From Rhizaria sp. SCN 62-66 (lineage: Eukaryota): a stretch of DNA of 64,000 nucleotides. Positions within the stretch are counted from its first letter, which is position 1. Each line of letters begins with the position of its first letter. The position numbers and the translations under genes were made by a program. This document shows positions 5,845-62,894 of the stretch, piece after piece. Location of the stretch: contig MEDY01000027.1 of the NCBI GenBank assembly GCA_001724265.1, positions 62,001-126,000 on the forward strand, in the 5' to 3' direction. The notes below the pieces were generated by a model that was given only the letters and a program-made list of their open reading frames with translations, was not told the DNA's origin and ran no database searches.

Positions 5845-5853
5845 ACCCTAATT
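5845..5853 (+). promoter_or_regulatory. ACCCTAATT telo-box-like motif
   Basis: The same 9-mer recurs at 9994-10002 and 60954-60962 (minus strand), each time upstream of a gene on the same strand. Confidence 0.3.
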
Positions 5854-7380: not shown

Positions 7381-9615
7381 TCAAGCCATGGGCGACAGGT
7401 CCGGCACACTGCCTGGCGCAGCGCCAGGAGCGGCGGCGGCCGGGGCAGCGGCTGCCGCGGGCACGAAGCCACTCGGCGAGCCCATCGCGTGGCCCTGACC
7501 CTGCACCTGCGCCTGCACGCGCGCGGAGCCAGGGTTGCTGTGGCCCTGGCCGTGGTTGTAGACGACTGCGCGCTCGGCCTGTGCGGCCACGGCGGCCTGA
7601 TAGGCCGCCGTCGCTGCCGCGTCGCTGCCCATGCCCGCGGCGCCGGGGCCGGGGCCGGGGCCGTACGGGGGCTGCGCCTGTGTGGAGCGGAAGTCGCCCG
7701 CGCCGCCGCCGCCGTAAATGGTGTCGGGCGGCGGCGGCGTGGGGGACGACTGCACGCCCTGCGACTGCGAGGGCATCTGCTGCAGCTGCTGCGCCTACAC
7801 CTGCTGCGGCTGCGGCTGTGCCTGCACCGCGGCGGGCTGCGGGCGCGGCGGGAGCGCCGACTGCGGCGGGAGCTGCGCGTAGGGCGCAGCCGCGGGGCCG
7901 GGACCGGCGGGCGCGGCAGGCGGCGCAGCGGCCAGGTTCGCAGACACGCTGAACCCACGCGTCGGCGACGACACGAACCCGTGGTTGTTGCCGCCGCTGC
8001 CGCCGCTGCCGCCGCTGGCGGGGCGCTGCGGCGACTGCGGGCCCGCGGCGGCCGCGAACGCGCTGGGCCCAACCGAGTAGGCGCGCGGAGGCATACCGCC
8101 CGGCGCGCCGCCGCCGTAGCCAGGCACGGCGTACGAGACCTGGGGCGCGGCGCCCGGCGCGCCCGCCGGGGCGCCGTGCGCGAGCACGGGCCGCGGCGTG
8201 ATGGGCTGCGGCGGTGGCACGGCCCCGCGGCCCGCGGCGACCATCTGCGCGTGGATCGACTGGAACTCGGCGTCGACGCCGCGCGTGCGCGCGCGCTCGG
8301 CGTCGCGCGCGCGCTCGATCTGGTCCGCACGCACGTCCAGGCAGTGCTTCTTGGCCTCGTGCGCTGCCGTCTGCGCCAGCTCCACCGCGGCCGCGAGCTT
8401 TCCGCTGGGCGTGTAGTGGTTCTTGATGATGGTCTCGGTGGTGCCCGCCAGCGCGGCGCGGGGGAAGCCCATCTTCTGCGACTCCTGCAACATCGTCGTC
8501 AGCGTCTCGGGCGTGTGCTTGAGCGCGACCTGCTGCAGCGTCTTGAGCGTCTTCATCAGCACGCCCGGCGGCGGTGCGGGGTAACGCGCGAGCAGGAACG
8601 GCATGTTCTTGAACCACACGTACTTAGGCTGGCGCTCCAGCGGGTGCACCGCCGCGGGCTCCGGCTTCGAGGGCACGAACACGGGCGCGGGCGCGGGCGC
8701 GGGGCGGCCCGAGAGCTCGCGGATAATGCGGTCCGCCTCGAGCGTGACGTGGAGCTTGATCTGCGCGACGGCGTCGCCGGTGACGCCCTCGACGTTGAGC
8801 TCCAGGTCTGCCATGCGCTGCAGCTCCTTGAGGCTCGTGCTGTCGATCTGCGCGCGGATCGCGGCCAGCTCCTTCATCAGCGGGCCCATGTCCGCCTGTT
8901 GCTGCCCGCGGTGGCGCCGCTGCACGTGGCGCTCGAGGAATTCCGGCGAGGAGAAGGCGGCGTTGCACTCGCCGCAGCGGTGCGCCTGCTGCGCCTTGCC
9001 GCGGCGCAGCTCCTCCAGCTCCTTGCGCAGCTTCGCGTTGCGGTGCTGGTGCGCATCGATCCACTCCTTCTGGCTGCGGATCGTGTCCATGAGCTGCGTC
9101 TGCACGTGCAGCTGGTATTCCATCGTGAGCTGCATCAAGCGGAAGAGCTGCACCACGTTGGCCGGCTCAGTGAACATCGGGAAGTCCGCCTCGTTGATGT
9201 CCGCGAAGCAGATGTTGTCGAAGTTGCGCTGCAACGCCGCGCCGTCGCGGTACTCCACTACGCGCTCCAGGTCCACGTTGTTGACGCTGCCCCAGTCTGT
9301 GGTGGGTGCAGGTGTGCGCAAGCGTGGAGTTCGAAAATGAAGCGGACGGGTTTGTATGGCACGCGAGAGTCGGGAAAATGATGGCAGGACAGTCATAAAG
9401 AAGAAGGGTGAATGCATATGGGTGAGATAGAGTCGCATAACGGAAGAGTGCATAAGATAGTTGAAAATGAGCCAGCTTAAAGCATATACAGGTTGTAGAA
9501 CGAGGACTGTAAAGAGAAGGGGATGTCGAGCAGACGTACCAAGAGCGTTTCGACGCACGCTGAAGCTGAAGGGGGGCTCATTGTCGCCCTTTGACGACTT
9601 CCCATGACGTGACAT
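7381..9615 (-). CDS. DZIP1: DZIP1/DZIP1L (iguana)-like basal-body protein, ~663 aa; exons 9615-9540 and 9296-7381; one in-frame TAG at 7795-7797
   Basis: Spliced N-terminus FSFSVRRNALDWGSVNNVDLERVV..DGAALQRNFDNICFADI..VVQLFRLMQLTMEYQLHVQ matches the Dzip-like_N pattern, followed by the C2H2 finger CGECNAAFSSPEFLERHVQRRH. ORFs 7795..9627 and 7381..7776 share a frame and are separated only by a TAG. The 3' extension to 7381 depends on UAG being read as sense. Confidence 0.8.
7795..7797 (-). other. In-frame TAG, candidate sense codon
   Basis: Context is QAQPQPQQV*AQQLQQMPSQSQ; the frame stays open to TGA at 7381-7383. Confidence 0.75.
9297..9539 (-). other. Spliceosomal intron (243 nt, multiple of 3, no in-frame stop)
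   Basis: GTACGT donor and CAG acceptor on the minus strand, AT-richer interior; removal rebuilds the R-x-x-L-D-W segment of the Dzip N domain. Confidence 0.85.
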
Positions 9616-9993
9616 GGTAGAAGCCACCTAAAGATGAGTGTTGTAATTCGCAGAAAGGTTCGAGAAGGTGAGAACAGGCGATGAAACCAAAATAATGGAT
9701 GCCTCGACGAACGAGGTGAGAGTGTTGCGACAATTGCAGCTAGAGGCCATTCGAACGTCAAATTCGTATTTTAAAAATACTCAATATAGTTTCCATAGCG
9801 ACAGTATATATTCAATCTGAAACTCCCCGATAGCCATCTTCTACGACGCATACGCCTTCATTTCAGTCCCGTCCCAACTCGCTCAACGGTCAAAAAGTTT
9901 AGTCGTTTTGGGTCCAAGTCCAAGCACTGTGGCAGTCAAATTTTCAAGTTAAATGTCGTCCAAGATCTCCGTTTCAGTTGATAAAATTCCTAC

Positions 9994-10002
9994 AATTAGG
10001 GT
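9994..10002 (-). promoter_or_regulatory. AAACCCTAATT telo-box-like motif in a divergent intergenic region
   Basis: The plus strand reads AATTAGGGTTT, which includes the full AAACCCTA core on the minus strand. Confidence 0.3.
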
Positions 10003-16300: not shown

Positions 16301-17444
16301 CTCGGCTGAGGGCGCCGGCGCCGTCGCCCGCGCCGCAGGGGCCGCGCGCGGCGCCGGCGCGCCGTCGGGGCTGCTGCCGACGCACACGCCGCTAGCGCGC
16401 CGGCTCACGGCGGACGGCGAGCCGATCTCCGACTCGACCGACGGCGGAGACTCCGGCTATGACTCGCTCTCCGATGACGACAGCGCAGAACACGCGCGTG
16501 ATCAGGCAGCGGCCGCCGCGGCGGCTGCGGCGGCAGCGCTGGAGAGCAACCCGTACGTGACGCGGTTCGGCGGCGAGGCGTACTACATCTCGCCGCGCAT
16601 GGGCTTCTACGCCGAGTACGACTAGGACGATCAGTGTCTGCGCCCCGACACGGCTCAGTCGACGCGCGCAGACCCCGTCGTTGATGTCGCTCTTGCGCTC
16701 GCGCAGCCAGAGTTGCAGTTGCAGGCACAGGCACAACCAGTTGCGCTTAGACTCATGTCTGAGGTTGACATGAGTACGCTATCGTCGAACGCGCACCCCA
16801 TTGCTGCCGATGCTCCAGCTGCTCCCGCGTCCGCTCGCGCGCAGCAGCGCGAACGCATCCCAGGGCCCGCTGCGCAGCTGGCGGCCGCCGAGGACGCGAT
16901 TGCGGCCATGTACGGCACGCCCCTGAACTCGACAGCTGTGGGCAGTTCCGGACCGATGCTCGCGTACTCGGCTCGCGCTGCTCAAAAGAGCCAGAGCCAG
17001 CCAGCCAAGCGCGGCGCAACTGCGTCCGAGGCTGGCGGACGCGTGATTAAGCTCGGCAAGCCTGCACAGCAGCAGCAGCAGCAGCACGGTGAGCCCGGAG
17101 ACTTGACTGTCGCGACCGACCGTGGGCGCTCACCGCCACGGTCCGCTGCCGCGCCCTCAGTCATGGTCACTGGCGCCGGGTTAGGCGGCATGGGCGCGCA
17201 CACCGCAGCGCACAGTGCCGCGGCCCTGGCAACTGCGAAGCAGGCTGCGCGGCATGTGCTCGTTGTGCCGTCTCCTCAACAACCAGTGCAACAGCAACAG
17301 CAGCAGCAACAACGGTTCTCGCTGATGCCCAAGCGGCGCGTTGGCGAGTCCGGGCTTGAAGTGACCGTGATGGGCACGCATGTCGGCAAACCTCCTGCCT
17401 CCTCCAAATCTGGTGACGCTGGTGCTGCAAACAGTAACAAGTGA
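10332..17444 (+). CDS. Giant low-complexity, probably disordered Ala/Ser/Pro/Gly/His-rich protein, ~2370 aa, with one in-frame TAG at 16623-16625; no recognisable domain
   Basis: ORFs 10158..16625 and 16713..17444 are in the same frame with no other stop between them. GC-rich composition persists to TGA at 17442-17444 and then drops. Many SP/SPR motifs, polyQ and acidic runs, and an RRRRRRRK basic patch. Start is uncertain (ATG 10221 or 10332). Confidence 0.7.
16623..16625 (+). other. In-frame TAG, candidate sense codon
   Basis: Context is GFYAEYD*DDQCLRPD; about 270 further sense codons follow. Confidence 0.65.
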
Positions 17445-17920: not shown

Positions 17921-20795
17921 TTAGTTGGAGGCGGAGAGCTCCTTGATCTTCCAGCCGCCCTCGCCGTCGCCCATGAACTCGAGCTCGAGCTCGTGGAACT
18001 TGCGCAGCGCGGGGCGGTGCGCGATGGAGAAGACAGTGACGCCCATGTCCACCACGGTCTGGTACAGCCGCACCTCGTCCTCGGGGTGCACGGCCGACGT
18101 CGCCTCGTCGATGACGGCGAACAGCGGCTGGTGGAAGAAGACGCGCGCGAAGCCAAGCTTCTGGCGCTCGCCGCCGGAGAGGCGCTGCTCCCACTCCTCG
18201 CAGACCGTGTCCAGGCCCTGCGGCTGGTTCGCGATGACGTTGTCGAGCCCGGCCAGGTGGCACGCGCGCAGCACGGCCTCGTCGTCGGACGCGTCGAAGC
18301 CAGAGCGCACGGGGTACGTCACCTGATCGCGCAGCGTGCCCAGCACCATGTAGGGGCGCTGCGGCAGCCACATAAGCCCGCCCATGGCGCCCTGGCTCTC
18401 CTCGTTCGAGTTGACCGTGTCGGCGGCGGCCGCGGCGGCCGCGGCGGCGGCGTCCTTCTCCTTCTTGTCGGTGAGCAGCGAGGAACGGCGCGTGCTGTTG
18501 CGCGCGCGCTCAGCCTGCGCGAGCGCGTAGGCGGACGCGAAGCCGTGGCCGAGGCCCGACTCGCTGACGCGCTTGGCGGGGCGCGTGATGCGGCCCGCGT
18601 AGAGCGGCCACAGCCCGGCAAGGACGCGGAACAGCGACGTCTTGCCGGCGCCGTTGGGGCCAGTCACGAGGACGGAGCGGCCGCGGCGGATCGAGAGGTT
18701 GAGGTCCTTGAGCAGCACGCGGTACGTGCCGTCCTTGTTCTGGCCAGAGATGGTGACGTCGCTCGCGCCGTGCGCGTCGATCGCCTGCACGTGCGCATCG
18801 GGCGGCAGCACCGTGACGTGGTTGAATGTGATGGCGGGCACCTTGGTGTTGATGTTGATGCAGCCGTGCGCGTCGCACATGATCGACGGCTCGTCGCTCT
18901 CGACCGAGCTGGCGGCCGCGGCGAGCGCGCGCTCGTCCTTGGACACGATCGTGTCCGCGGTCTCAGTCTCGCCGAAAACCGTCACCAGCGGCGCGCCGGC
19001 CTGTGACACGCCGGGCGTGGAAGAGAAGAGCTTCTGCGCGCGGTGGGACTCCTTGGCGGCGTCCTTTTCGACGGCCTCAAGCGCGTTGACGAGGTCGGTG
19101 ATGCGCGAGGTGTAGCCCGCGAGCTCCTGCAGCTCCTTGCCGAGCAGCAGCAGCTCCGAGAAGGAGTTGCCGCAGCGCAGCATGATCTCTTCCGTCGCGC
19201 GGAACTGCGACATGCGCTGCGAGGCGGAGACGTTGGTGGCGAGCAGGAAAGGCACGTGGACGAAGACGCCGCCCGCGAGCATGCCAGAGAACTTGACGAG
19301 GTTGTCGGCGATGGACTTGCGGACACGCTGCAGCGCGTGGCGCGAGCGAGTGTCCATGAGCGCGTTCATACGCTCGTCAACGATGCGGCGCTCCGTGTCG
19401 GCGCCGCGGAGGAAGGCAATCTCCTCGGCGTTTGCGATGATGCGGTGGTGCGCGCGGTGGAAGTCGCCCTCGAGCGAGGCCTCGCGCGCGACCATGGGGC
19501 CCAGCGGCGGCGCCAGCGAGCGGCACGCGACGTTGATCAGCGCGGAGACGGCAAAGAGCATGAGCGGGCGCTTGAAGCCGAGGTCGCGCGAGGCCTCGAA
19601 GAGCGACATGGTGAACTCGAGCATGGGCTTGAACGAGTGACCGTAGAGGAAAGCCACGTTGTCGGAGAAGGCCTGGATGTCGTTGACGATACGCTGGTCG
19701 ATGTTGTCGAGCGTAACGGCGACGTCCGAGGGCGCGGTGCCCGAGGCGCGCTTGAGCACGGTGGCGCGGTAGAAGTTGAGGCCCTTGAGGTACTTGGAGT
19801 GGGCGTAGGCCGTGAGCGAGCGGCGGATGTTGAGAGCGATGAGCGACTCGCAAAAGCGCAGGCCGGAGTTGACCATGATGCCGCCGCCCATCCACATGGA
19901 GAAGTTGACGAGCCAGCGCACCCAGGCCTCCCATGAGGCGCGCGAGATGGCCTGCGTGATGGTGATGACGGAGGCCTTGACGCACGTGATGGTGAGGAAC
20001 GTGCGCATCACGAGCAGGCAGAACTGCACGGCCATGAGCTGCGCCGTGTAGCACGTCGGCGACGGGATGGCGACCTTGAGCAGGCGGTAGAGCTGGTGGA
20101 ACAGTGCCATGCCCGAAGGCACGCGGGGCTTCTTCTTGCTCTTCTCGCGCTCCTTCTCCATCGACGCCGCGGCCTCCTTGACGCGCTGCGCGGCCTCGGC
20201 GGTCTTGGCCGCAATGTCGGCCTCAGTAGCGCCCTTAACGGCCATCGCCGCTGCGGTCGCGCGCGCGATAGCGTTCTTGGCAATGACCTTGTTCTCGGCC
20301 GACTTCTTCATCGCGACGCTACGCAGACGCAGGTACTCGCGCACGCCCAGCGCGCCGAAGCCGCCGACGCTGAGAATCAGGAAGGTCATCAGGAGCTTAT
20401 CGCGGAAGACGATAGAGGCGACGCTCTTGACGGACGCAACGCCGTGGTTGGTCAGGGCCGAGACGACATGGGACCAGGAGAGGATACCGTGACTGGCATT
20501 GTAAATGCCGGTGGTCGACGTAGCTGCAAAGGGAACACGAGGAAAGCATTGAGCGGATAGACAAGAGAGGGAATTGAAGATAAGTGGCAGAATCAACAGC
20601 GTATGATTGAGATGGAAAGACTGTGTGTAATCTTGATAGAGTATGTTGCGTTGACTAGGCGCTGGAAGTGCGATTGCTGACCAGTTCTCGTCGACGACTG
20701 TGACGAAGCGATGCAAAGCGGATGCATGTGGCGAGTTCTATAGATGACGTACCCGAAGAGGAAGCAGGAGGGACCTGCGGCTTCGACAAAGACAT
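17921..20795 (-). CDS. ABCD-family (PMP70/ALDP-like, peroxisomal-type) ABC half-transporter, ~881 aa; exons 20795-20753 and 20523-17921
   Basis: ABCD hallmarks LDNIDQRIVNDI and EEIAFLRG, Walker A GPNGAGKT, LPQRPYMVLGTLRDQVTYP, signature LSGGE, Walker B FAVIDEATSAV and H-loop SIAHR. Ends in TAA. First exon MSLSKPQVPPASSS joins in phase 1. Confidence 0.93.
20524..20752 (-). other. Spliceosomal intron (229 nt)
   Basis: GTACGT donor and TTCCCTTTGCAG acceptor on the minus strand; phase matches the 43-nt ATG exon. Confidence 0.8.
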
Positions 20796-21346: not shown

Positions 21347-21649
21347 GTATGCAACGTCATTGCGCTATCTACGAACAACCGTGAAATATTTGGTTCACTG
21401 TGTAGTACTTCTAGTAATATCCTTCGTAACTGTCTTGCAAAGCTTGTTATAGATGTGTGGCGCCTTGAACCATGATCTGTGATGTCATCATGCGCGTGCG
21501 AATGGCCGCGCCTTTTGCTTCCTGGTGTTTACATCTCTATAGATGGCTTCTGCGACTTGATATGACTGAATTTTACGATAGGCCATTAACTCACGGTCTT
21601 ACTTATCCTTTCTTTTGCTTTCCAACCCTTTGTCTTGTTTTGACTACAG
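21347..21649 (+). other. Putative 5'-UTR intron of the amino-acid transporter
   Basis: GTATGC donor candidate and a long pyrimidine tract ending TTTTGACTACAG. No reading-frame test is possible and the donor is uncertain. Confidence 0.4.
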
Positions 21650-21751
21650 ACTCCCCACTTCCTTTACACTTCCTCCTTTGGAGCGTTCCTTTTGACTGGT
21701 AACCTTTGTGAAGAGACCGCCGAGTCACTCTCTGCTGCGCAACACTTAACC

Positions 21752-48000: not shown

Positions 48001-51000
48001 CTCCGAGTCTGGCTCCGACGGTGGCGTCACAACATCATCAGACGACAGCTTTGATGATGACAGCGAGCACGACGAAGGTACACGTGGAGTCGATGACAGC
48101 GAGCGCCAGAAGCTTGGCGCGGAAACGAGCCCGCGATCGCCCGGCGCCCAACGCCGCCACCGCAAACTGCTCCGTGCACAGCGCAAGCGCGCAGCTCGGC
48201 GCCGTGCCGCGCGTAAGGCGATTGAGGATGAAGGTAACCCGGATTCGCCCTCGCGCGTGCGCTCGCCTTTCCAACTGCTTTCTCTGCCTGCAGAGACGAC
48301 CTCTGCGCGCGTGCCATTGCAGCGCGCTGGCTCGCCGGACCCCTCGTTACCGGCAGTCACGGGCGTGCCCTGGAACAACCGTTCATTATCTCCTCCTCTT
48401 TATCCGCCGTCACGTTCCATGTCGCGCTCTCCATTCTCGCAGCACCGCAGTGGTCTTCCCCCCCACGTGTCGCCAGTGATTTCGATGCCACAGAGTATCT
48501 CGCCCATGCCCTCGCATTCGACCGCTGCATTTGTGACAGTGGATGCCCCCTCAGTGGCACACACACTCACTACGGTGCAAGGTCTTCACCGGGTTGCCGT
48601 GCGTCTTGTTACGCCGTCCGTGCGTGCTGCTGTAAATACTTTTTTGACATCTAATCAGCCTGGCGTCGCTGCTGCTGCGCCTGCGAGCACGTCTTTGCCC
48701 ATGACTTCGCTTGACATCCCTGTTAGCGGACAGGTAACGCGGCCGCGTGACCCTTCGTCACCTGGCACACAGCCTGCACTTGGCCGCGTCGGGATCTCTC
48801 TTGCGCGCCCGCCGAGTCGCCAGGCCGCATCCATGGCTGCTTTATCTTCACAGCGCCACCTGGTTTCTGGTTGCCTGCGCGCTCCGGCGCTTAAGGGGGT
48901 GTCACGTTTCATTGTTGCGGCCGGCTCAGTTGTGGCGACGCGCATTGCGGCAAGCAACCGCGCGCTAGCACCCTTTGCGAGCCCAGCGCATGTTGTGCGT
49001 GCGCATGAGCTGCGCTGTTCCGCAATACATAGTGTTGAGGCCGCTGCGCGTAGTCGTGCTGCAGCCGCGGCCGCTGCGGCGCGCATGGTTCAGCAGTCCC
49101 GTGAAGCTAACCAGCGCGTCGTTGAGAGCCTTATTCACCCTCATACCAGCGGTGCTTCTGCAACAGGCAGTGATGTGCGCAGCAAGCTCCGCAAGAACCC
49201 GCGCAGCCTTGGTCAGCATATTCCCCATAACGCTGACCTTGCAGCGGGCGCAGACATTGTGTTCGACGCAGATGACGAGGTGCTGTTTGCAGACGAAGGT
49301 GAGGAAGAAGATATCCACATCAATCGTCCTTCCTCCGCAAATCTCCATCACCAACAAGAAACGGCGAATGTTGCGCACACTGCACCTCAACGCCTTCCTC
49401 ACAAAAAAGACTCGTCAGGCGACAACAAGAACTCCTTTAGCAAGCGCGGTGTAAACATGACTGAAGCTGAAGAGCATTTCCTGAACGCACTGTTTGGCCC
49501 CGATGTGCTTTCCTCACCCCCGTCGCTTCCGCTCCTTTCATTCCCGTTTCCGGTGACTCCAGTTGGTTTCGTCGCCGCTGGTGGCTCAGCGGCCATTGCG
49601 CTTCCAACCTCGGCTGATCCTCCGGCGCGTGTTGGCACCACGGCAAGTCTCGAGCTATCTGTCATGCGTTCAACCTCGCGCTCTGCTCCCGCCGCGGCAG
49701 CCTCCGTTTTACTGCGTGTGCGTGTTCCTGTATTCTCATTGTCTGCACCCGCACCGCAGGTTTTCACTGTTGACTTTGAAGGTTTTTCTCGCACAGCGGC
49801 ACACGCGCTGGCGGCGTGTAAGGCACCTGCTGGCGCAGCCGAGACGCTTGCCGCTCTGACAGCATTTCACCGCCGTGTTGAGACTTTCCGTGCGCAGCAC
49901 CGTACGGCTGCTGCAGACAATGCCGCTGGCGCGATGTCGGATCGCGTGGCTGCCGTGCTGTGGCAGACGTTGCACGGTGCGGCGCTACCGACATGCGACT
50001 CCGAAGCCGACACATGGGCATTACTGGGGACGGCGTATGGTGGCGTCGTGCCACTCGCTGCGGCAGGCTCCTCCTTTGCAACTGACGCGGCTGCGCTTGG
50101 GTCATCGGCGCTGCATGCCACGGCTACTGGGATTAATGCTGGCCTAACAAGCTCTCTGCCGACTTCAGCTACGCCCGCTCGGTATAACGCTTTGTCACTC
50201 ACATCTGCACCTTACGTTGCGCGTGCATTGCTTTTTTCTCCAATCGCGCACCGCACTGCGCCTGCTGCAGGCTTTGCCGCACTTTCTGGTGCTGATGGTT
50301 TATTTACCGCGATGGCTGCTAATGCAGCTGAATTTGAGGCTTCCAGTGATAAATTGCATTCAAGTTCAGCGGCGCGGACCTGGAGCTCGTCGCGCAATGC
50401 AGTCTGGGGTGATCTTCCGTTTCTGTACGCAACATATGGCATCTCAACAGCATCATTTGGCCGTGGTAGTGCGGCGACTGAGTTCCCCACCATTGCTACT
50501 GGCTCAGGTGCACCAATCTCGCTGGTTTTTCCCGCCGCAGACCACGACGCGACTGTGCGCGCTACGGCCGCCACTGTCGCTGAGGGTATTGCCGTGCATG
50601 CTCAGGCTTCGATTTACGGCGCCGCACCGCTGCGCAGTCATGGTTTTGTGAGCGTCGAAGAAGCCCAGTCGCAGCCCTCTCTTAACAAGCAGGTACTGTC
50701 CTGGTATCAGGCAGCTGCAGTGCCGCAGAACAAGACCGCTGGTGCTACTCGCGTACTACAGCGCACCACAAGTTCTGCTTGTGACGCAAATGATCATGCC
50801 TGGCGCACGCTGTCGGCTCTTCGTGTGCCGTCATCTGTGGACGATGTGCTTGAAGCCATCGACAATGAGCGTCTGCTTGTCGTTTCTGCCGCGTTGCAAA
50901 CGCTAGCTGCATCCGGCTACGGTGACCACGTTGTTGCTGTTGCAGAGTCCACAGACACTCCCGCTAGTGGAGCGCTGAACGCGGCTACTGTGTGCGCGAA

Positions 51001-54000
51001 ACACATGGGCGACGTGTCGACCGCAGCGGCTGATAATAATCGCACCTTGGCCGCAGTTTCTGAAGACTGGATTGTTTGGCGTGTCGCTGCGCCAAACACA
51101 TTGATGCTGTGTTTTGATGATCCTTCGGACGAACACGCAATATACTCAAAGGTGGAACACACGAAGAAGCGCTTTTTACTCGATACGGTTCCCGTGTTTA
51201 AGCGCTTTTTTGGTAGAGCTGGTTCCAGTAATGAAGCTGTAGGCGCACTCTCCATCCCTGAAGAAGACAGCGCGGCCGCCGCGGCAGTTATTCCTGGCTC
51301 GCCAACCGCGGCCGCTGCGGCTGCTAACTCGCTTGCCGCTGCAGCTGTTGCGGGCAACACCGCGGCGCAGCTTGCAACGGTAGAGCCTGTTGAGATTGAG
51401 CCTTCACGCTTTAAGCAGGCCCTCGACTCTGTCGCCAACAAAGGACTGGGTTCTGGGTCCAATTTGTACCAGGCACGTACACAGCTTCTCGCTCGCGTTC
51501 CAGACAGTAGGCCGACGACATCAAGCTCTTCCACCAGTGAAAGTGACCGCGCACGCGCGCGGCCACGTGTTGAGATCAACAAAGAAGCTTTGGCGGCTGC
51601 AGAGTCTCAGGGTCTTCTGTTCACGCCCGACACCGATAGCGCTAAATCTTTTACTTTCACGACTAACAACGCAGATGGGCCACGTGTTCCACTTGGCACA
51701 CCTATTGCATCATCATCACTTAGCATTGCAGCGGCGCTTGGTATGAGTAAAGAATCCACCACACCCGTCCCTGGTGGTACTGGTATTGCAACGTACCTGT
51801 ATTACGATAATGCAACGCGTGCTGCCATTTGCAACGCGTTCGGATGGCGTACGGTTGTCAAGCCTGGCACAGTGCTGATTAAGGAGGGTGAGGAATGTGA
51901 CAAGATGTTCATTATTTACCGTGGCGTATGCCGTATTGAAAAGGCTGTCGAACTTGTGGTGCCGCGCTCAGGTACCTCTCTATCTGCCAGCGCATCTGCC
52001 ATCGGCGTTCAAGAGAAAAAGGACTCTGTATTGGCACGTGTGAACTTACGGAACCTTCATTTGGGACTCATCACCTCTGGACAGCTTGCCGGTGACGAGT
52101 CGTGTCTGCTTGCGGGACCCTCGCCTGTAACGGTGTGTACAGTTACTGCTAACACGGAAGTGTTTGTTATTGCGCGTGAAGCCGTTTTAAGGCTGTTTCC
52201 TCCATCACTGCTGCGGCATTTGACGTCAGACGCGCGCGAGCGGCTTATGTGGCACCACCACCGTTTATCGCACATCTTAGAGCGGCTTAACCCTATCACG
52301 GCTGTTGTTGCCGCTGCTGCGCAAAGTGGCATCTTGGCTGATATCCAGCCTGCCGAGCGGAGGTTAGGACCATACGAACTGCCGTCAATTATTGCGCTTG
52401 AGCGTGATGCGCGCGCGCGCGACACAAGCGAGTTGTCACTCTCGGTCGACGTGTTGCAGGTGATGCGCCGCAGTGCCGCTTTTGCGACCACGCGGAACAA
52501 GCTTGTTGCTGCAGGTATGGGCGACATCTCGCTTGCAGGTCGCGGCGGAGGTGTGCTGCCCGCTCTCTCGACACTTACGGCTGCCTTTGGTAGTAACCCC
52601 GCGCTACTCAACTCGGTCGTGCGACCCACAGTACCAATTAACACAAAGGTTAAATCTGCCGCCGCTGTTGCTGCTGCCGCTCCTGGAGTGTTTTCTGCGA
52701 CTCTCTCCCTTAAGAATTCTGTGGGTGGCAACCACGCTGATGGCGCGCTGCGTGACCCGCTGACGGGCCAGCTGATGCCGACAGAGGTGGTTGACCCTAT
52801 GACAGGGATATCGACACCTTTCCAGCCGCGCAGTGGAGCTGCAGCTGATCAAGCGCTGGGTGTCTCATCAAAGTCACGCGCGGACCTGCCGCTCAAGGAT
52901 CTCGTTGAGCGTTCGCGTGCTTTCCTTGCCAAAGAACTTGCTGACGCTGCATTGCAAGACGGAACACGTGAGCATGGGGCGGGCTATCTTACGGGTTCCG
53001 CACTGCTTCACGCCGCTAAACGTTATCTTCATGAGGGTGCACTCACTGGTGTGCCTGCCAGCACCTCTCATCAACAACAACTTAACGGACGTCGCCATGC
53101 ATTCAATGCCACAAGCATGGCAAGCGGCAAGCCAAAACGTCAAGTAACTGTGCGGCGTGTTGCTGGTGGGTTATCAACAATGGTTGCGGGTGTTGAGTCG
53201 TCAGTATCGAGCTCGTTGACGGCAGAGACCAAGGCTACAATTGCAAAGCGCGAAGGTGTGACGCTGAGCACTGATCTTGCAACACGCCTGACACCGATCT
53301 CTTCAGCGAGTCCCGCGACACACTCGCGCGCTGAAGCGTGCTTACAGCTCGCTCAGCGCATTGATGCACAGCGGCTGCGGCGGACACAGCAAGACTTTGC
53401 GCCGCCTGTATGGTATGCTCAGACGACGCTGGGAGCCGACACTGCAGCGACCAGTAAAGTGCACCGTCCACTTGAAGAGCTTGAGACAAAGTCCGTTGCT
53501 GCTCCCACGGCGACAACCGAGATTGATGGCACTGTTTTGCCTGCGCCGTCGCAGTCCGAGCAGCCAGTCATGACTGTCTCAGAACTGGCCGTGTCATCCG
53601 TGGCAGCGCTCTATGCGCAACAACAGGCACGCGCGCGATACCGCCCTGCACTGCCTGTTGCGGCGCTACACAGTGCGATTGCACGCCACATCGATCATGT
53701 GCGTCGTGGTGCGGCTTCGATTACAGCCGACGGACTGGATGCCACAGCCGCGAAGCTGGGCACGCTTACACCTACAGCTGAGCTTCCTGTCTTACCTACG
53801 CTGCCAATGTTTGTTGATGAAAGTGCACCCGCAAGTCTGAGCGATAGTGACCCCGATTTGCGTTCAAGTCGGAGAGACCCTGACAATGAGCGCGATGAGC
53901 GTTTGTGCAAGCCTGCAGCGCAAGCAGCAAGTGCTGAACTCGATCCTGAACTTGTCGCAATGGCATTGGAGCCTACACTTAACTCTGAAAGCGCCTTTCG

Positions 54001-57000
54001 TGTCACTACGCTGTTGGCAGCTGCTGAGGAACGTGAACGGCTCGCCTCCGATTCCACGGCACGTTTGCGCAACGGCGAGTTCGATGCTGACATGGATAAT
54101 GATTTATTGCCCATGCGCGGACCCATTGACGCGGCCATGTTCACACGCTTCCGTGGCACAGAAAGTGGCATCAAGCCCGGTGATGCTGTGAACGTCGCGG
54201 CTGCTGCAGCCGGCTCTAACCCAGCCTCCTCCATTGCCGCATTTGGTTCTGCAGCACTGGCGAGCTCGGCCTCTGCAACGGGTCCGTTGCGGTCGCCAGA
54301 TGATCCTTTGGCACCCGGTACGGGCCCTCACGGTGGCACGGCTGGCAGCGGTTTTGTCAACAGCAGCGAAGAGGTCGCAATGCCTTACTTCAAGTACCAG
54401 GGCTTTGAGTCGCACGCCGCCGTGCTTCTTACCGCTGGTCTGCGCAAAACAGTTGAGAACCAGTATATCCCTTCAGCACACACCCTGCGCGTGGGTAAGC
54501 TTACTTTTTCCTCTCTTGATGGTGGTGTTGACGGTGGCGTTGGCAGCGGACTGTGTCTTGAAGCGTCTGTGCGCCTTCCACCGCGTCCCTTCACACGCGG
54601 TGCTGAGGCGCCTGAACAGGTGGACTTTCTCCATCCAGGCGCAGCTGCCGCCATTGTCGGTGCCGCACACGCACATGCTGCGCGCACAACTGCCAGCAAG
54701 GAAGTGCTGAGCGCTGAGGCCGCATCCGTAGCTGCTGCAAATGTGCGTTCTGCAACGGGTGTTTTAACTGCCGCGGCAAAACCTTCTCGCATTAACAACC
54801 AAAAAGAGATGCGCCGCGGTGCACCGGCAGCTGCGCCAGATGAGGTGCCAGGGCGTTTCTTGTCTTCAACGATGGACCCACTGACTCTGCGTTCGGCATC
54901 ACTGCTCTCGGGCGCGTGGATGGGCGGAGGCGCCACTGGTATCCCGCATCTTGTCCCACCTGATGCGTCGCTAGTGAGCCCCGCTGAGGGCGCGCTCGCG
55001 TCAGCTACTACTATCCTCGGCGAGCTTAGCAGTCTCAGCACTGGCGGCGTCGCATCTCTCACGCGTGGCGAAAATAATGTAGCAGTACCTCCGCTGATGG
55101 CTGTAAGCGGAGTCATGGCTGCTGCGCTTGCGCACGGACCACTCCGGCCCGCAGACCGCGATGTAACGGTTGTATCTGTGAAGACTGGCCGCGTGGTTGC
55201 ATTGGCAGAACTTGTTGCTCCGAAGCATGGTGCTTCAGGTGGCAAAGTTACACTTACATCGACATCCAAAGTCATCGCTGAGAGTAACACTGCATCAGTG
55301 ACGCAGAAACAACAAACCCTAGATATGACGAAACCAGGTGCTGCACTTCTTGAGCAAGACTTGACGCCCGGCTTGCGTGCCGTGCTTTCAAGTGCTGTAG
55401 CGGGTCAAGGCGCACGCACTACTCCAGTCGCGATGCGCGAGTCACAAGCTCAGTATTTGAGTGCGGAGGCTGGCCTGGTAAGTTACGTTGGTATAAACAA
55501 AGCACTCAAAGACTCAGCGTCTGCAGTTCATGCAGCAAGTGGAAGTGAAGCTGCTCCTGATGCGCACGCGAATGATGCTGTCGTTGCAGCAAGCGCTGCG
55601 GACGCAATGCAACGCGCCAACTCTGTTGCTCGTGCTGCGGGTGCCGCGCGCGACACTGCAACGCCCGTGAACGAGTTCATTACTGTGGCTGTTACGAAGC
55701 AACCGACTCTTCCTCGTGCCGTCAAGGTTGACCGCGTTGTAATCGCGCAGGAGCTTGCCATTGCGGCACAAGAATCAAGCCTTGCAGCTGCGGCTGCAGC
55801 CAAATCAGCTGCAGCTGTGGCAAAGCAAGCTGCCGCAACTGTGTCTCAAGCTGAAACTAAGCCTCACTATGCCCAAGCACTTGACCGCGACGCCGGAACT
55901 GCCTTTTCTGTCCGTCAAGACGGTGCTGATGATAATCTGCACAAGAAGAAATCTTCAGCACCTGTGCATGAGTCAGAATTTTTTGTAGAAGCCAAGAACA
56001 AGTACACTGCACCATCGGCGGCTCTTCGCTCGCTCATTACGCGCGGTCCTACGTCGCTGGTCTCGCGCAGCGAACGCGAGGCGCAACTTGACGAGGCTGC
56101 GGCGCGCGTAAGCAAGCTTGCTGAGGCTGATGAAGATGAGGCCTCTCAAGCTCAAGATGATGATGACAACGATTTTGATGCTACAGACGCATGGCTTTTA
56201 GGACTGGACCCCTCTGACTTTTCTGCACGCTCGCAGGCGGGTGCACCACTTACCCTGCGTGAGACGAGTGCACTTGTCTCAAAGGCGCGTCATGCGTTGA
56301 CGGGTTCGCTGTCAGTCAAGTCATCAGCACCCAGTGCTGTGGCTTTTGCATCACAGTACAATTTGCAGGCAGATGCTCTGCGTGCGCTGCCATCAGCGAA
56401 GCCGCTGGCGTCGCATGGACAGGACGATGCGGCGGTTCGATCGGTCTCGCGGTCATCCCGCGCGGCGGCAGAGTTGTCTCGGCAGGAGCGTCTGCGCGTG
56501 GTCAACTGGCTGAGTTCATTCTTAGCCGATGTGGGCGACGTCGACGACGGAGTTGCTGATGATCTATGGATGGTACCCTCACTCGCACCTTCAGCTGCAG
56601 CTGGTGCCGCCGCCGCAACTGTCACCGAAGAAGCCCGATTGCGCGCACGACACGAACGTTTGCGGCGTCTTGCACTGCCAAAGCGGCAGCCGGGCACTGC
56701 GGGACTGTCAACACAGATGATTGCGCACGAAACCAAGGGTGACGCCACAGCCACTGCGGCCCGCTTCTCAGCCTCAACGCTTATTGCACTTGAAGATCCT
56801 TGGGGCAGCCGCCTTCGCAACAAGGGGGAGGCTGCACTGCGCCGCCGTGCTGTTGCTGCGATTGGACTTTACTTGACCCCCGATGATGCCGGAAAGGCCC
56901 TCGCAGCGACGATGGCGCAGACCACCGCTCGTGAGACGTTGCTTCCCTCTCATTCGCTCCCAGCCGCTTTCACCTCCGGTGTGCGGCTGAATCCTAGCAC

Positions 57001-60000
57001 AGCTACCTCTGGTGCAATTTCAGCTACAGTGGTTGCGAACAGTGAGCAAGACGACGAAAATCGCGCGTGGGAAGCGTTGCGCGCGCTAGCTGACGCCATT
57101 TCGCGGCCGATTCCTGGCCCCACAGTCTCTATGGCTGCTGCAGAGGCCGCTGCCTCCGAGGCTTCTGCCATTGTTGCCGAAAAGCACGCCGCCATGACAG
57201 CCACAGGGCTTTGCGATGAAGATAAAATCGTAGAAAACAAATCAAAGACCGTTTACGCACCGTTCACACTGGTATCGATTGAAGGCGTAGCGTACGGTGA
57301 GACTGCGCTGACAGACAGCTTAGCGGGCGCTACTGTGCGGCTGCCAATGCCCGACACGGACGCTACAGTCACAGCGACGAACTTGACTGCACGTGCGCCA
57401 CCATTGCTGTCATTTTCTGATATTACGCCTAACGTGTCACTCCCGCTTCCGTCAACGGCAGCCGCTTTAATCGATCTCAAGAATCAGCGCTACGTCAAGC
57501 ATACGCCGCGCCTGTTTGAAGGCCGGCAGGCTGCCAAGCTGCGCGCAGCGCTGGCGGAGCGGGCGTTCCACACCAGGTTAGCGGCACTTATTAAGCGTGA
57601 GGGTGAGCGGCGTGCGCGAGAGATTGCTCGCGGTGAGGACCTCATGCTTGACGAGTTTACGGTGCCCGCAGAATCTGCGGGGACGTGTGCCAGTGCGCTA
57701 TTGGGCTCTGGTACTGGTGATATCACGCCGCGACTTGATGGTGATGTGTATCAGCAGACTCCCACGCGTGGGCGGTCTAGCAGCCGCGGTGAGTCCAGTG
57801 GCAGCCGCAATGGTTCGCGGTCGCCCTCACGCACAGGTCCGACGCGAAGTCGTACTCTTGCAGCGGTGTCACCGCAGCCTGATCGGGCCAGTGGTGGCGC
57901 TCGCTTTGAGTATGACGCTGCGCAAGATGAGTGGGTTCTTCGGCGCCCAGAAACCATGTCGCCACAGCTGCGCCGCAGGCTCGCGCAAGCTGATAGTGGT
58001 TGTGACTCACATGGGCCAAGAAGCGCAATTGATGGTAGCGGTCCGCCCCAACAAAAGTTTCTCTCCTTCTCTGCTCTTGCGCGTCAAAGCGCACAGATGC
58101 CCTCGACTTCTGTTGTGCCGCAAGTTGGGTCTGAGTCTGCGATGCTCGGGGCCGCAATGTCACGCTCACTTAACGCATCCGCTCGCCTGGCTGATGGTGA
58201 TGCCACAGCTGCGGTGGTGTTGCCCTCCGCCGCACTGACTGCGCGCCGCTTTGTTCACAACGCTGCTCTAAATGCAACCAAGCAGCCAACTTCAGCTGAG
58301 CCGCAGCCTGAGGATGGCGACTTGACGCAGCGTCAGCGCTTGTCACGCTTCGAAGTGCGCCATCACAGTCTTGGTGACCTTAACATGGCGCTTGCCCCCG
58401 AGTCAGCGCAGAATGTTGTATTTGACTCAGGATCTATTGCTGGGACTGCGCCTGTGTCAGTGCCATTGCAGCAAATGAATGAAGTGGAGAACGCTCCGGC
58501 GCGCGTGCAACCTGTGTCTGCGATGCGCCCAGCACAACCCGAGTACCACATGCATCGCGACCTCTGGGAACAAGCTTCTAACGTTGATGCCTCCGCATTG
58601 CCGTCTGCAGACAGTGTTATTCCGGAGGGCATGCTTCGCTACGCCCCCGCCACAGATAAAGCACCCGCACCTCTTGTGCCTGCACCCACTGCGGAAACGC
58701 ACGCGACGCGAGTACTCGGTGGTGATGATGGGGAGCAGGTGTACTCGCTGTTTGACTTTGGTGCGACGTTACCATATGTGCCTTCTAAACTCGTAACGGC
58801 GAGCACAGTGGCTGGCCGTGGCACTGCGACGACGATTGCAGAGGATGAACATTTCCGTTCGATCGTGGTGACGTCACAGCTGGTTGACCTCTACGCCATC
58901 TTCCGTGCGCATCTGGAGGCGCGTGAGCGCTTTATCACTGACGCTGCCCGAGCTTCTGCTGCTGCCACAGCCGCTGCTGCTCGCGAAGGCGACGCGCAGG
59001 CTGCCGCTGCGCCATTGGACGCGCCTGCTGTGCTCTCAACACTGGGCTCTGACGGTGCAGCGCAGTACGTGACACAATGGGTGAGCGGCCGCGTGCAAGG
59101 CATGATGGCGGGCCGGCCTGCGGCGGAGCAGCGTGCAGCTGTGGAACTGTTGGCCGATCTTGTGCGCGGCGCGTCGTGGTCGCACCAAGTTGCACTCTCA
59201 CGGCTCCGCGACCGCGTCTCAGTTGAGGTTGCCCGTTGTGCTGCTCGTGAAGGCTCAGGCCCCGGCGCTAGTGCCGCGCTCGCTGCTGCACTGCGCTCCG
59301 ATGGCCGCGCCAAGGTTGTCCCTCCCCCAGCAGGTCCACGTGCTGGGGCAGATGAGGGCGATTACGCTGACGCGCTGCGCAAGGACGAGCTTCGTCGCAC
59401 GCAGACCGGTGTGACATGGGTCGCCCCTGCCGAAGCTTCTGATGCACTGGATGTCTCCGCGCGACAATGCCAGGAGGACCAGCGTGCAGTGACCAACGAC
59501 GCCGTGGCGCGGCTAATCAAGTCTAGCGCGGTGCCACTGGGTGCGGACAATGCGTTGTCAGCCACCGCGTTGCCGTTGCCATCACCGCCTGCAACTTTGA
59601 GCACTGTGCCGCCCACTGTGGCCCTCAATCTCTCGCACACACCGACCCCAACGTCTGCTGTGTCTACATTGAGCGCACAGCGCATGGGTAGGGCATCACT
59701 GCTGTCGGTGGACATCTCAAGTGACTCGAACCCTTCGTCTGCAGCAGGATCCCCGGCCGCAGGGTCGCGTATTCACTCACCGCCGCTGGCTGCCGCGCTC
59801 GCCACGCCGCTCGCGTTTGCCGGCGCATGGTCTGGTGCCGGTTTTACGCCCCGTAATGGGACTGGCAGCGCAAGAGACCAGCGGCCCGGGTCGATCAAGC
59901 CGCCCTCGCGTCCGCAGTCACGCCCGCCGCCGGACCAGCAGCGCCGCCGCCGCGACGTCGCGCCCGTGGTGAGCCCACGCAGCAGCGCTGCAGCCATGGC

Positions 60001-60439
60001 CGCGATGCAGGAAGAGGTGCAGCGCCAGCGCGCCAAGCAGGGTCTCACGTCTGCAGGTATTTATACGAACACTGCCAGTGGCGGCCTCGCACCGCTCTGG
60101 GGCGCGACTCCTATGCAGGACCGCTCCGCACGTGTGCCAGCCGCTGGTCGGCGCGAGCTTTTCCCCGAGCTTGGCGGCAGCAGCAGCGCTCGTGGTCCTA
60201 CAACAACACTGCACAAGACCAAGAGCAAGAGTACGGTGGCAGACGCGATCGACGGAACAGGTCTGGGTGTGACTGAGCACATGGACCGCTTGCGCGAGCA
60301 TGCGGCCTTTGCAGATGCAGTTGCTACTGGCACAATCGCTCTCTACAATACGCCCCCTGTTGTCGCACCCGTGCCGCAGCAGTTGCGTGCCCCGGGCCAG
60401 GTTCCCGATGCCCTTCCCAACATCACACGGCGTAACTAA
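36041..60439 (+). CDS. Giant ~8130-aa Ala/Ser/Thr/Pro-rich protein with several degenerate cyclic-nucleotide-binding (cNMP)-like domains; one in-frame TAG at 38684-38686
   Basis: ORFs 35939..38686 and 38750..60439 share a frame. cNMP-like motifs occur on both sides of the TAG: LFVVLHGGVV..LAPGAVFG (~37730-37830), LQKGAVVQTAGARLDTVYIVLRGSV (~39140-39220) and VKPGTVLIKEGEECDKMFIIYRGVC..GQLAGDESCL..TEVFVIAREAV (~51850-52190). Ends in TAA before an AT-rich spacer. Start is uncertain. Confidence 0.75.
38684..38686 (+). other. In-frame TAG, candidate sense codon
   Basis: Context is GSQTGFKS*TGTTQ; more than 7200 further sense codons follow. Confidence 0.7.
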
Positions 60440-60460
60440 AAACACATTCACGATACTAAC

Positions 60461-60546
60461 GTACTCCTAGTACTAGCACTAGTACAGTACTAAGTCCGTG
60501 TACTGTACTGATAATACTAGTACAAATGTAAGTACAAAAAAGTACT
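60461..60546. repeat. Cluster of nine GTAC cores forming short palindromes
   Basis: GTAC at 60461, 60470, 60482, 60487, 60500, 60505, 60520, 60532 and 60542; includes the inverted repeat GTACTAG-CA-CTAGTAC (60470-60485). Confidence 0.7.
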
Positions 60547-60844: not shown

Positions 60845-60853
60845 AAAAAGAAA
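60845..60853 (-). terminator. RNA polymerase III oligo-T terminator of the tRNA gene
   Basis: The minus strand reads TTTCTTTTT immediately after the discriminator T. Confidence 0.7.
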
Positions 60854-60926
60854 AGGTTCTAACGAGGATTGAACTCGTGACCTCAGCTTTACTAAAGCTG
60901 CGCTACTACCACTGAGCTATAGAACC
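60854..60926 (-). tRNA. tRNA-Thr, anticodon AGU, intronless, no encoded CCA
   Basis: The minus strand folds as acceptor GGTTCTA/TAGAACC, D-arm GCT..AGC with TGG, anticodon arm CAGCT-TTAGTAA-AGCTG, T-arm ACGAG-TTCAATC-CTCGT, discriminator T. Confidence 0.93.
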
Positions 60927-60953
60927 GTACGATTGTTGGGTTCCGCGCTGAAA

Positions 60954-60962
60954 AATTAGGGT
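60954..60962 (-). promoter_or_regulatory. ACCCTAATT telo-box-like motif about 30 nt upstream of the tRNA gene
   Basis: Third exact copy of the 9-mer. Confidence 0.3.
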
Positions 60963-61397
60963 ATTAGTAGTAATTTACAACTCACAATTTTTAGAAGTGT
61001 TGTAATCATCATTAGTCGTTGACCAGACATAAACTGGTCAAAAGTTTTCCTTTCGATCAAAAGCATGAGCAACACATTTTATAAGTGCTTATTATATCAA
61101 AGTCGACACATATGATGAAATGAAAAGGAATTAAAAGTCGCTGTTCGGACGACGGACAGATAAGCCAATAGAATTCTGGGAATAGCGAATAAACATAAGA
61201 GTACATGTATTCTTCGAGAGTTTAAATCATGGAGACTTACAGCGCTACATTTGGTCCATACTAAAGTAAGTAACGTTGCTTAGGTCACCAAAGTGGCCCG
61301 ATTATAACACAAAATATAATTGGAAGTGACAAAAACTGTTGTTTTTCGCTTTCAGAAGCAGCAGTAGCAGTAGCAGCAGGAGCAGTCGGCGACTTGA

Positions 61398-62894
61398 TCA
61401 CTGCGAGATGAAGAGATTAGGCTCCTCGCGCTTGATCCAGTGGAGCACGCGATGGCTGGCCGCAAGCGCAGTTTCCTTGGACGTCAGCGGGAGAAACGTT
61501 GCGTAGAGCTCAAAGTCGCCTGGCCGCACGATCCCGAGCACAACAGCGTCCTGCCCGACTTCGTAGTAGAGCGTGTGGCGCGTGCACGCGGCCGCGGAGG
61601 CCGCCAGCGCCTTGGCCGTCTGCTGTGCGAGCGCGGAGCGGCCCGCGTCGGCGGGCTGCGGGTGCCCGCCGGCGAGCGCGCCGCACGCGCGCTGGTAGCG
61701 CCGCAGCAGTTTCATGCCGCCCGCGTCGGGCGCCGCCGAGTCGACGTACGGCTCCGCGGGCGCCGAAGTGACGAACTGGTTGAGCTGCATAGAGCGGAAG
61801 AGGAAGTGGCGCAGGTCGGGGCTGCCGACGGCGATGTCGTCGACAGTCCACGCCTGCAGCGACATGGCCTCGGCCAGGTCCTGTGTCAGCTCGCGCGAGT
61901 CCAGCACCTTGCACACCTCGCCGCGGGCCTCGCGCAGCGCCTTGACGTCGCTGGGGTCCGTGGTAACAAAGGCAAGGCACACGTCGCGCGCCACGTAGCT
62001 GGAGTAGACGTACACGAACGAGTCGGGCGAGTGGCACGGCAGGCAGAACGGCGCCCACGAGTCGGACGACCGTAGCGACTGAGAGTTGGTGAGGAAGTTG
62101 GTCAGCAGCAGCATGTCGTTGACGTACAGCGGCGCGTCCTTCTCGCGGCTGAAGGCCACCAGGCGGCCGCCGGCGATAAGCACGGAGTACAGCAAACGCT
62201 TGCTCTTGCCCTTGGTGCCCTTCTTGAGCGCGGTGAGGATCTTGGCGCGCGAGGCCTTGTTCAGGCGCAGCGCGGGGACGGCGTCAAGCAGCAGCGCGGG
62301 CGTGCGCTCGGCGTCGTTGATGACGTCGTGCAGCATGAGCTCCGTGCCGGCCATGAGCAGGCGGATGTCGTACGTGGGGTGGTCCTCAAGCACGCGGTGC
62401 ACGCTGCCGCTGAGCACGCTGAGGATCTGCTGGTGCGCGAGCGAGAGCTGCTGCTGCAACTGCGACACCGTCTCAGGCGAGCGTGAGATGCACACCATGT
62501 AGATCGGCCCGCGGAACAGGAAAACAAACTTGTAGTCGCCAGCGTAGATGGCCTGGATGTTGTCTCCCAGCCGTTGGAAGTTGGCGATGAAGGATGACAT
62601 CACGCCCATGAAGTCGGAGATCTCTGTCTCGTCGCCGTAGCGCGAAAAGATGGGACGGCCCGCCCAGCTAAAAATGAAGATGTGCTTCTCGTGCGCGTAC
62701 CACTCCGGCATGCGGTGGTTCTGGTGGATGTACTTCTGCACGCGATGGTGCTTGGCCGCCCAGTATGAGTTCGAGTTGGCGTCATCCTCCGGCGTCGACG
62801 AGGTTGGCGCGTCTACGCTCGACGGAACCGTGGTTGCCAGCGGCGCCACCAACGTTGACGCCGAGGAGGCCCGAGAGCGACTCCCTTGAAGCAT
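61398..62894 (-). CDS. MON1: Vacuolar fusion protein MON1/SAND (Rab7 GEF subunit), 498 aa
   Basis: KHIFIFSWAGRPIFSRYGDE, KFVFLFRGPIYMVCIS, YDIRLLMAG, WAPFCLP and FELYATFLP motifs typical of MON1. Ends in TGA. Confidence 0.93.
   Translation of the reverse strand: MLQGSRSRASSASTLVAPLATTVPSSVDAPTSSTPEDDANSNSYWAAKHHRVQKYIHQNHRMPEWYAHEKHIFIFSWAGRPIFSRYGDETEISDFMGVMSSFIANFQRLGDNIQAIYAGDYKFVFLFRGPIYMVCISRSPETVSQLQQQLSLAHQQILSVLSGSVHRVLEDHPTYDIRLLMAGTELMLHDVINDAERTPALLLDAVPALRLNKASRAKILTALKKGTKGKSKRLLYSVLIAGGRLVAFSREKDAPLYVNDMLLLTNFLTNSQSLRSSDSWAPFCLPCHSPDSFVYVYSSYVARDVCLAFVTTDPSDVKALREARGEVCKVLDSRELTQDLAEAMSLQAWTVDDIAVGSPDLRHFLFRSMQLNQFVTSAPAEPYVDSAAPDAGGMKLLRRYQRACGALAGGHPQPADAGRSALAQQTAKALAASAAACTRHTLYYEVGQDAVVLGIVRPGDFELYATFLPLTSKETALAASHRVLHWIKREEPNLFISQ

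Follow-up and report, generated by a model that had tools for sequence, protein, structure and literature searches.

The 64,000-nucleotide stretch of DNA analysed here, hereafter the window, spans positions 62,001 to 126,000 of contig MEDY01000027.1 (assembly GCA_001724265.1, deposited as Rhizaria sp. SCN 62-66), and contains three long genes that each carry one in-frame TAG codon. The leading explanation of these codons, partly supported by the three sites, is that UAG is decoded in this organism and that UAA and UGA terminate translation. TAG1 lies in a gene for a Dzip1-like protein, TAG2 in a low-complexity gene of 2,434 codons, and TAG3 in a giant low-complexity open frame (Table 1). It appears fairly probable that UAG is not an effective stop here, either because UAG alone has been reassigned or because it is leaky in general, as a step towards reassignment, and this would explain all of the observations at once.

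The eight long genes of the window, which comprise approximately 18,800 codons, have no internal stop in frame 0 other than TAG1, TAG2 and TAG3. As the original prediction had claimed, all three are located in frame within long open reading frames (ORFs), and frame 0 of the eight genes holds neither an internal TAA nor an internal TGA. The other two frames of these genes contain, per frame, 3 to 41 TAG, 0 to 78 TAA and 2 to 279 TGA codons. No frameshift was found across the same codons, which argues that the assembly is neither decaying nor error-rich. The very low usage of UAG that had been noted at the outset was borne out, with 3 UAG, 496 CAG and 113 CAA in 18,306 codons, or 0.16 UAG per 1000 codons.

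The eight secure gene ends of the window are four TGA and four TAA, with no TAG. Nine ends lacking TAG had been counted originally, and this holds for the eight secure ones; the TGA at 6683 closes a 119-codon ORF with no Pfam match and could not be retained. The accompanying probability of (2/3)^9, about 0.03, is corrected to (2/3)^8 = 0.04, and rises to about 0.10-0.17 with a realistic TAG share of 20-25%. Beyond the eight true ends, the next in-frame stop occurs after 4, 10, 7, 4, 22, 10, 18 and 32 codons; beyond TAG1, TAG2 and TAG3 it occurs after 138, 273 and 7,251 codons, respectively. The GC content past the eight gene ends drops to 0.28-0.55, whereas past the TAGs it stays at 0.50-0.73.

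Codon-usage models were trained on the secure coding sequence of the window and on its spacers. With these models the sequence following each TAG scored as coding in frame 0, against both alternative frames and against intergenic sequence (log-likelihood ratios in Table 1). A finer test used 54-codon windows, with 246 intergenic controls and 127 real coding windows. The scores of the first 54 codons past each TAG, and of the 54 codons preceding TAG3, were matched by 0/246 intergenic windows and fell within the range of the 127 coding windows, the segment between TAG3 and the first ATG lying near their median. Downstream of four of the five TGA or TAA stops tested the score was -1.1 to -1.4 per codon relative to the spacer model; downstream of the fifth, the gene-3 TGA, a GC-rich patch scored +0.03 per codon. 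The GC content at third codon positions (GC3) in the segment past TAG1 is 0.97 and then 0.85. In the 272 codons past TAG2 there are no stops in frame 0, and 8 and 9 in the other frames; GC here is 0.60-0.78, compared with 0.35-0.42 past the TGA that ends this gene. Each TAG thus has in-frame coding sequence to either side of it. A new gene starting at the next ATG (16755 past TAG2, 38849 past TAG3) was considered and does not fit, the sequence flanking the TAGs being already coding in frame.

Relatives were found for the Dzip1-like gene only, namely P0002, a fragment, and P0008, a full-length protein of 601 aa, both from another metagenome and 54% identical to the window protein. The segment following TAG1 aligned to the tail of P0002 with a local score of 124, compared with 69 +/- 10 for 1000 shuffles, none of which reached it; read in its other two frames, the segment scored 38 and 39. 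The window protein shares with P0002 and P0008 the tail motif PPP....GGGG.G.FRS and the C-terminal motif PG..SPMA. When read through TAG1 it has 663 residues and is colinear with the 601-residue P0008 from the first residue to the last, so that the C-termini of the two proteins lie at about the same point. A stop at TAG1 would, judging from this alignment, cost the Dzip1-like protein its conserved tail.

TAGs arising by sequencing or assembly error, with sense codons such as CAG as the true reading, were given a very small probability. In favour of an error, the window is from a metagenome assembly of modest depth (about 6-9 for the contigs compared). Contigs from sequencing runs X2 and X3, however, differed from the window at only two positions (9821 and 9850) in 19.9 kb, and one contig over 16220-17212 showed no difference, confirming TAG2; the pieces listed for these runs include none across TAG1. 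Three contigs of the ENA and Logan assemblies carry a gene model that stops at TAG1, and four carry one that stops at TAG3. Assembly error is therefore unlikely to be the source of the TAGs, because TAG2 recurs unchanged, the models recur on several contigs, and no frameshift interrupts some 18,800 codons. The pieces from X2 and X3 were the same, so the two may be one data set, and X2 belongs to the same study as the probable source of the window. The depth tables of the runs, in which low-complexity contigs of other organisms are mixed, were left aside. None of the eight pieces listed for a poly(A) RNA run (X5) over 5500-25400 covers TAG1 or TAG2.

A strain diverging by about 1% from the window was seen in runs X4 and X5. 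In X4 it carries a 2-base deletion at 7370, 11 nt beyond the TGA of the Dzip1-like gene, an in-frame 12-base insertion at 12099, inside the 2,434-codon gene, and three substitutions (9439, 9470 and 9474) in an intron of the Dzip1-like gene described below. With thin coverage, and with 134 more differences outside the listing, no indel falls in the segments following TAG1 or TAG2 among the differences listed. This pattern is compatible with constraint up to the TGA.

The Dzip1-like gene contains a spliceosomal GT-AG intron of 243 nt (Table 1), placed by its junction, which gives RRNAL|DWGSV compared with RRSAL|DWKSV in P0008. Its GC content is 0.49, and it is invisible to ORF scans because it happens to preserve the frame and contains no stop in that frame; scores of -2.5 and +6.7 over 80 codons show that it is non-coding in frame. 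Three gene models, P0001, P0005 and P0006, include it as coding sequence. P0006 is a 417-residue model on a 5.6-kb contig, identical to the window protein except for eight unrelated final residues, and this divergent end is probably a contig-end or chimeric artefact. The genome is therefore intron-poor rather than intronless, with at least one intron.

Since the genome does have introns, removal of the TAGs by splicing, as parts of small introns or of spliced-out exon pieces, had to be weighed. That the known intron keeps the frame makes such an arrangement conceivable, as do a GTACGT 70 nt upstream of TAG2 and a dip in GC to 0.50 over about 240 nt around TAG3. The TAG flanks nevertheless score +16 to +20 over 54 codons, quite unlike the known intron. 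A candidate intron running from the GTACGT (16553) to an AG at 16750 was rejected, since the 22 codons between this site and TAG2 have a GC3 of 22/22. There is no GT[AG]NGT within 300 nt upstream of TAG3, only a poor GTGGGT at -161 lies upstream of TAG1, and the giant frame shows GC dips like that at TAG3 at 12 further points, none of them with a stop. Splicing therefore seems a very improbable explanation of the three TAGs.

Several observations weigh against a sense reading of UAG. All three TAG sites lie in poorly conserved low-complexity regions, and none falls in a conserved column. TAG1 itself sits within a Gln-rich insertion of 20 residues that is absent from the relative and appears as a gap in the alignment, and no residue can be read at this position for that reason. 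The chance of finding no TAG among eight ends is about 0.04-0.17, depending on the TAG share assumed. If the TAGs are counted as stops, the window shows an ordinary stop usage of 3 TAG, 4 TAA and 2-3 TGA. UAG usage is far below that of Iotanema spirale, a flagellate in which UAG is a sense codon (discussed below), and no tRNA with anticodon CUA was found in the 64-kb window, whose sole tRNA is a Thr-AGU and which contains no eRF1 gene. GC3 changes right at TAG2, from 22/22 before to 26/42 after, and the segment past TAG2 has a GC3 of 0.65-0.72 compared with 0.83-0.95 upstream; a fully efficient sense codon accounts for this fall less well than a leaky stop with reduced translation beyond it. 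GC3 is also low (about 0.5) behind TAG3. GC3 varies inside other genes of the window as well, which tempers the argument. Furthermore, the confirmation from runs X2 and X3 may lack independence from the source sample. Finally, that only TAG occurs in frame had been offered as evidence for a changed code, and this carries little weight: 63-66% of random single-base nonsense changes here give TAG, and the probability that three of three random nonsense hits would be TAG, from the codon usage of the window, is 0.25-0.29.

The bias of random hits towards TAG, together with the ordinary stop usage, would also be expected if the code were standard and the TAGs were true nonsense alleles, that is, three recent C-terminal truncations, or a gene split, fixed in a possibly clonal population. 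On this view the giant frame would be two genes, of 881 aa up to TAG3 and 7,196 aa from ATG 38849, and gene callers make the same splits. All three sites fall within disordered sequence that evolves fast and could tolerate truncation, and one C-to-T step in the gtg cag gcg cag of the tail would yield the context of TAG1. Three broken genes out of eight or nine, however, are difficult to reconcile with the absence of any frameshift from about 18,800 codons that contain many repeats. The lower GC3 past TAG2 would need many substitutions, yet all 272 codons there have remained open, and long-term upkeep of 272 and 7,250 codons behind a stop would be needed. A fresh start at ATG 38849 is disfavoured because the 54 codons from TAG3 to this ATG are coding-like, a score reached by 0/246 intergenic windows; as a spacer they would measure 162 nt with a GC content of 0.50-0.57, whereas the other intergenic regions measure 363-958 nt with a GC content of 0.33-0.47. 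The 7,250-codon frame behind TAG3 can stay open only if it is translated. We therefore regard nonsense alleles as a distinctly unlikely account of the three sites.

Partial readthrough under the standard code, with UAG leaky at the three sites and still a stop in other genes, would allow the sequence behind each TAG to be translated. It predicts that the Dzip1-like and 2,434-codon proteins would each have an isoform with a C-terminal extension, and that the giant protein would be made at a low level. The abrupt GC3 drop at TAG2 favours it, as does a GC3 of about 0.5 behind TAG3 compared with 0.7-0.86 before, which is expected of codons that are less translated. TAG1 and TAG2 are near the 3' ends of their genes, with 137 and 272 codons left to the final stop, and UAG usage is very low. 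In the giant frame, where GC3 is 0.70-0.86 over codons 150-900 and approximately 0.5 over the remaining 7,250 codons, the switch nevertheless precedes TAG3 by 60-120 codons. Three genes out of eight or nine would be an extreme share for programmed readthrough, none of the eight gene ends uses TAG, and a 7,250-codon protein made by rare readthrough would be hard to maintain. A C after the stop codon is a leaky context, and the bases following the three TAGs are G, G and A. Nor is there a shared downstream structure, the fold z over 100 nt downstream being -3.8, -0.2 and +0.9 for TAG1, TAG2 and TAG3; the value past TAG1 is explained by complementary runs of Pro and Gly codons. Readthrough of this kind is unlikely.

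With UAG decoded in general, ribosomes would read the three UAGs as an amino acid and terminate at the downstream UGA or UAA. The most likely form of this would be a change of UAG alone from stop to sense, at very low codon usage. Decoding might be carried out by a dedicated tRNA(CUA), or an abundant tRNA-Gln(CUG) might read UAG as a near-cognate codon, with eRF1 recognising UAG poorly. Our guess for the residue is Gln, which is plausible because the context of TAG1, gtg TAG gcg cag, differs by a single C-to-T change from gtg cag gcg cag, a string present later in the tail of this gene, and because Gln is the usual outcome elsewhere. The original proposal of UAG as sense, with UAA and UGA as stops, stands as far as in-frame coding past the TAGs, the homologous tail and the lack of TAG ends are concerned; a genome-wide change goes beyond what these data show. 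We infer both that translation passes over the TAGs and that the same would apply across the genome. UAG makes up about 0.5% of Gln-type codons, and all three occur in unconstrained protein regions. An early reassignment resembling codon capture, in which UAG has gone from gene ends and is reappearing as a rare sense codon, is offered only tentatively.

Searches for homologues spanning the other two sites returned the window's own models or nothing. A profile search with 1,199 residues centred on TAG3, against 1.84 billion representatives, gave two matches, both of them gene models from the window itself, and a word-indexed search with 601 residues around TAG3 gave the same two only. These models cut the giant frame, P0003 ending at TAG3 and P0007 restarting at ATG 38849, on four contigs each. 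No homologue was found for the last 455 residues of the TAG2 gene, a search in which low-complexity words swamped the candidates, and Pfam placed no TAG inside any domain. Scans of prokaryotic-genome collections and of viral contigs gave no match. A metagenome scan with the ABCD transporter gene of the window yielded one 3.2-kb contig, L001 (1-3244), from a sister species at 85% identity, which stops short of the TAG2 region; the 860 aligned codons comprise 538 identical, 198 synonymous and 124 residue-changing ones. The L001 transporter ends in TAA, like the ABCD gene of the window, and the two gene ends visible on this contig are TAA and TGA (TAG 0/2). The genes of L001 converge as they do in the window, and the TGA of the neighbouring ORF lies 330 nt from the transporter TAA. 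This 76-codon convergent ORF was tried as the tail of the TAG2 gene and rejected, as 721 of 1000 shuffles scored as high and it has no GC3 signal.

Table 1. Genes, in-frame TAG codons and tested segments of the 64-kb window.
Feature	Position	Strand	Remarks
CFAP65/hydin-like Ig-domain gene	1..5790	+	Pfam; 5' end beyond window; ends TGA 5788-5790 (control end)
Dzip1-like gene with C2H2 zinc finger	7381..9627	-	Pfam; probable true end TGA 7381-7383
Segment after TAG1	7384..7794	-	137 codons; log-likelihood ratio +97 vs frame +1, +83 vs +2, +139 vs intergenic
TAG1	7795-7797	-	codon 526 of spliced 663-codon Dzip1-like reading
Spliceosomal GT-AG intron, Dzip1-like gene	9297..9539	-	243 nt; GTACGT...CACAG; phase 1
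Low-complexity gene, 2,434 codons	10140..17444	+	open frame with TAG2; probable true end TGA 17442-17444
TAG2	16623-16625	+	in frame in 2,434-codon low-complexity gene
Segment after TAG2	16626..17441	+	272 codons; log-likelihood ratio +146 vs frame +1, +102 vs +2, +101 vs intergenic
Peroxisomal-type ABCD ABC transporter gene	17921..20737	-	Pfam; ends TAA 17921-17923 (control end)
Amino-acid transporter gene	21644..23494	+	Pfam; ends TAA 23492-23494 (control end)
Low-complexity gene, 3,869 codons	23858..35467	-	no Pfam match; ends TAA 23858-23860 (control end)
Giant low-complexity open frame, 8,188 codons	35873..60439	+	weak cNMP-binding matches; ends TAA 60437-60439
Giant frame, part upstream of TAG3	36041..38683	+	881 codons; weak cNMP-binding match; GC3 0.70-0.86
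TAG3	38684-38686	+	codon 938 of 8,188-codon giant frame
Segment from TAG3 to first ATG	38687..38848	+	54 codons, giant-gene model; log-likelihood ratio +33 vs frame +1, +20.0 vs +2, +20.4 vs intergenic
Giant frame, part from first ATG after TAG3	38849..60439	+	7,196 codons; weak cNMP-binding matches; ends TAA
tRNA-Thr(AGU)	60854-60926	-	sole RNA gene found in window; Rfam gave nothing else
MON1/Fuz longin gene	61398..62990	-	Pfam; ends TGA 61398-61400 (control end)
ERGIC protein gene	from 63381		Pfam

The DNA occurs in bioreactor, wastewater and activated-sludge metagenomes, DNA runs X1-X3 among them, on contigs of up to 248 kb, and the organism is an uncultured, GC-rich eukaryote with flagellar genes. 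A protein-atlas comparison of the ABCD protein yielded no useful taxonomic placement. The GC content of the window is 54-80%. Its long open frames, three of them very long low-complexity genes, alternate between the strands and are separated by AT-richer spacers of 363-1590 nt (GC 0.33-0.57). A gene order of the kinetoplastid type is excluded, because the genes alternate strands. The 1.6-kb intergenic stretch at 5791-7380 contains GC-rich patches at 6540-6900 (0.60-0.75) and 7080-7260 (up to 0.85), with overlapping ORFs of 100-180 codons on both strands, none of which has a credible Pfam match; a small or intron-containing gene may be hidden here, and the TGA at 6683 falls within this stretch. 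The 3' flank of the giant gene (60440-60540) holds many GTAC and ACTAGTAC palindromes, and it folds better than its shuffles (z = -2.7; 2 of 200 as good).

To our knowledge, a nuclear change of UAG with UAA retained as a stop was unknown before 2017. In the fornicate Iotanema spirale, nuclear UAG encodes Gln and the stops are UAA and UGA, with 204 in-frame UAG codons in 126 genes and UAA as the main stop (104/119) (Panek et al. 2017, PMC5304391). The window is alike in that UAG is the only stop codon seen in frame, that genes close with UAA or UGA, with no UAG among the eight secure ends, and that Gln is plausible. It differs in having 3 UAG in 8-9 genes, as opposed to 204 in 126, and equal numbers of TGA and TAA ends (four each), as opposed to a predominance of UAA. 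Iotanema is an anaerobic gut flagellate known from its transcriptome, whereas the organism of the window is GC-rich, its GC3 reaching 0.97, encodes a peroxisomal-type ABCD transporter and occurs in wastewater reactors.

UAG is reported to encode Leu in the rhizarian exLh (PMC5304391), and Leu or Gln in phyllopharyngean ciliates, where UAA is the preferred stop (McGowan et al. 2024, PMC11687900); a plagiopylean-type ciliate is described in which UAA and UAG differ in meaning (PMC10553269). As in the window, UAG in exLh and the phyllopharyngean ciliates changed alone, uncoupled from UAA. In those organisms, however, UAG is widespread and suppressor tRNAs have been found, whereas in the window usage is minimal and a tRNA(CUA) was sought in the window only. 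Programmed stop-codon readthrough, which in Drosophila reportedly gives C-terminal extensions, is similar in that a stop is followed by a long conserved in-frame extension, and TAG1 and TAG2 likewise lie close to the 3' end. It differs in affecting few genes, with the stop still used elsewhere; here 3 of 8-9 genes are affected, TAG is absent from the eight secure ends, and 7,250 codons lie behind one of the TAGs. In Amoebophrya sp. ex Karlodinium veneficum, all three stop codons are said to occur in frame as sense codons. All three stops are also sense codons in the AT-rich genome of Blastocrithidia (PMC12153298). Both share with the window the presence of standard stops in frame, but it is UAG alone that is in frame in the GC-rich window.

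UAG-only nuclear codes remain few in these sources, being described from one fornicate, one rhizarian and some ciliates (PMC5304391, PMC11687900), and no account of UAG serving as a sense codon in a GC-rich flagellate came up in our literature search. Public gene models are cut at the TAGs, P0001, P0005 and P0003 ending there and P0007 restarting, and two of them also cross the intron. Metagenome contigs of uncultured eukaryotes can serve to screen for code variants. If UAG is indeed decoded in this organism, it would represent a further independent UAG-only nuclear code, set apart by its occurrence in a GC-rich free-living protist that uses UAG very rarely, and it would bear on how reassignment begins, whether by codon capture of a disused stop or through an ambiguous, leaky intermediate. 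Should the change prove to be at an early stage, the organism would provide a natural snapshot of a stop codon changing its meaning in a GC-rich genome, in a lineage unrelated to the known cases.

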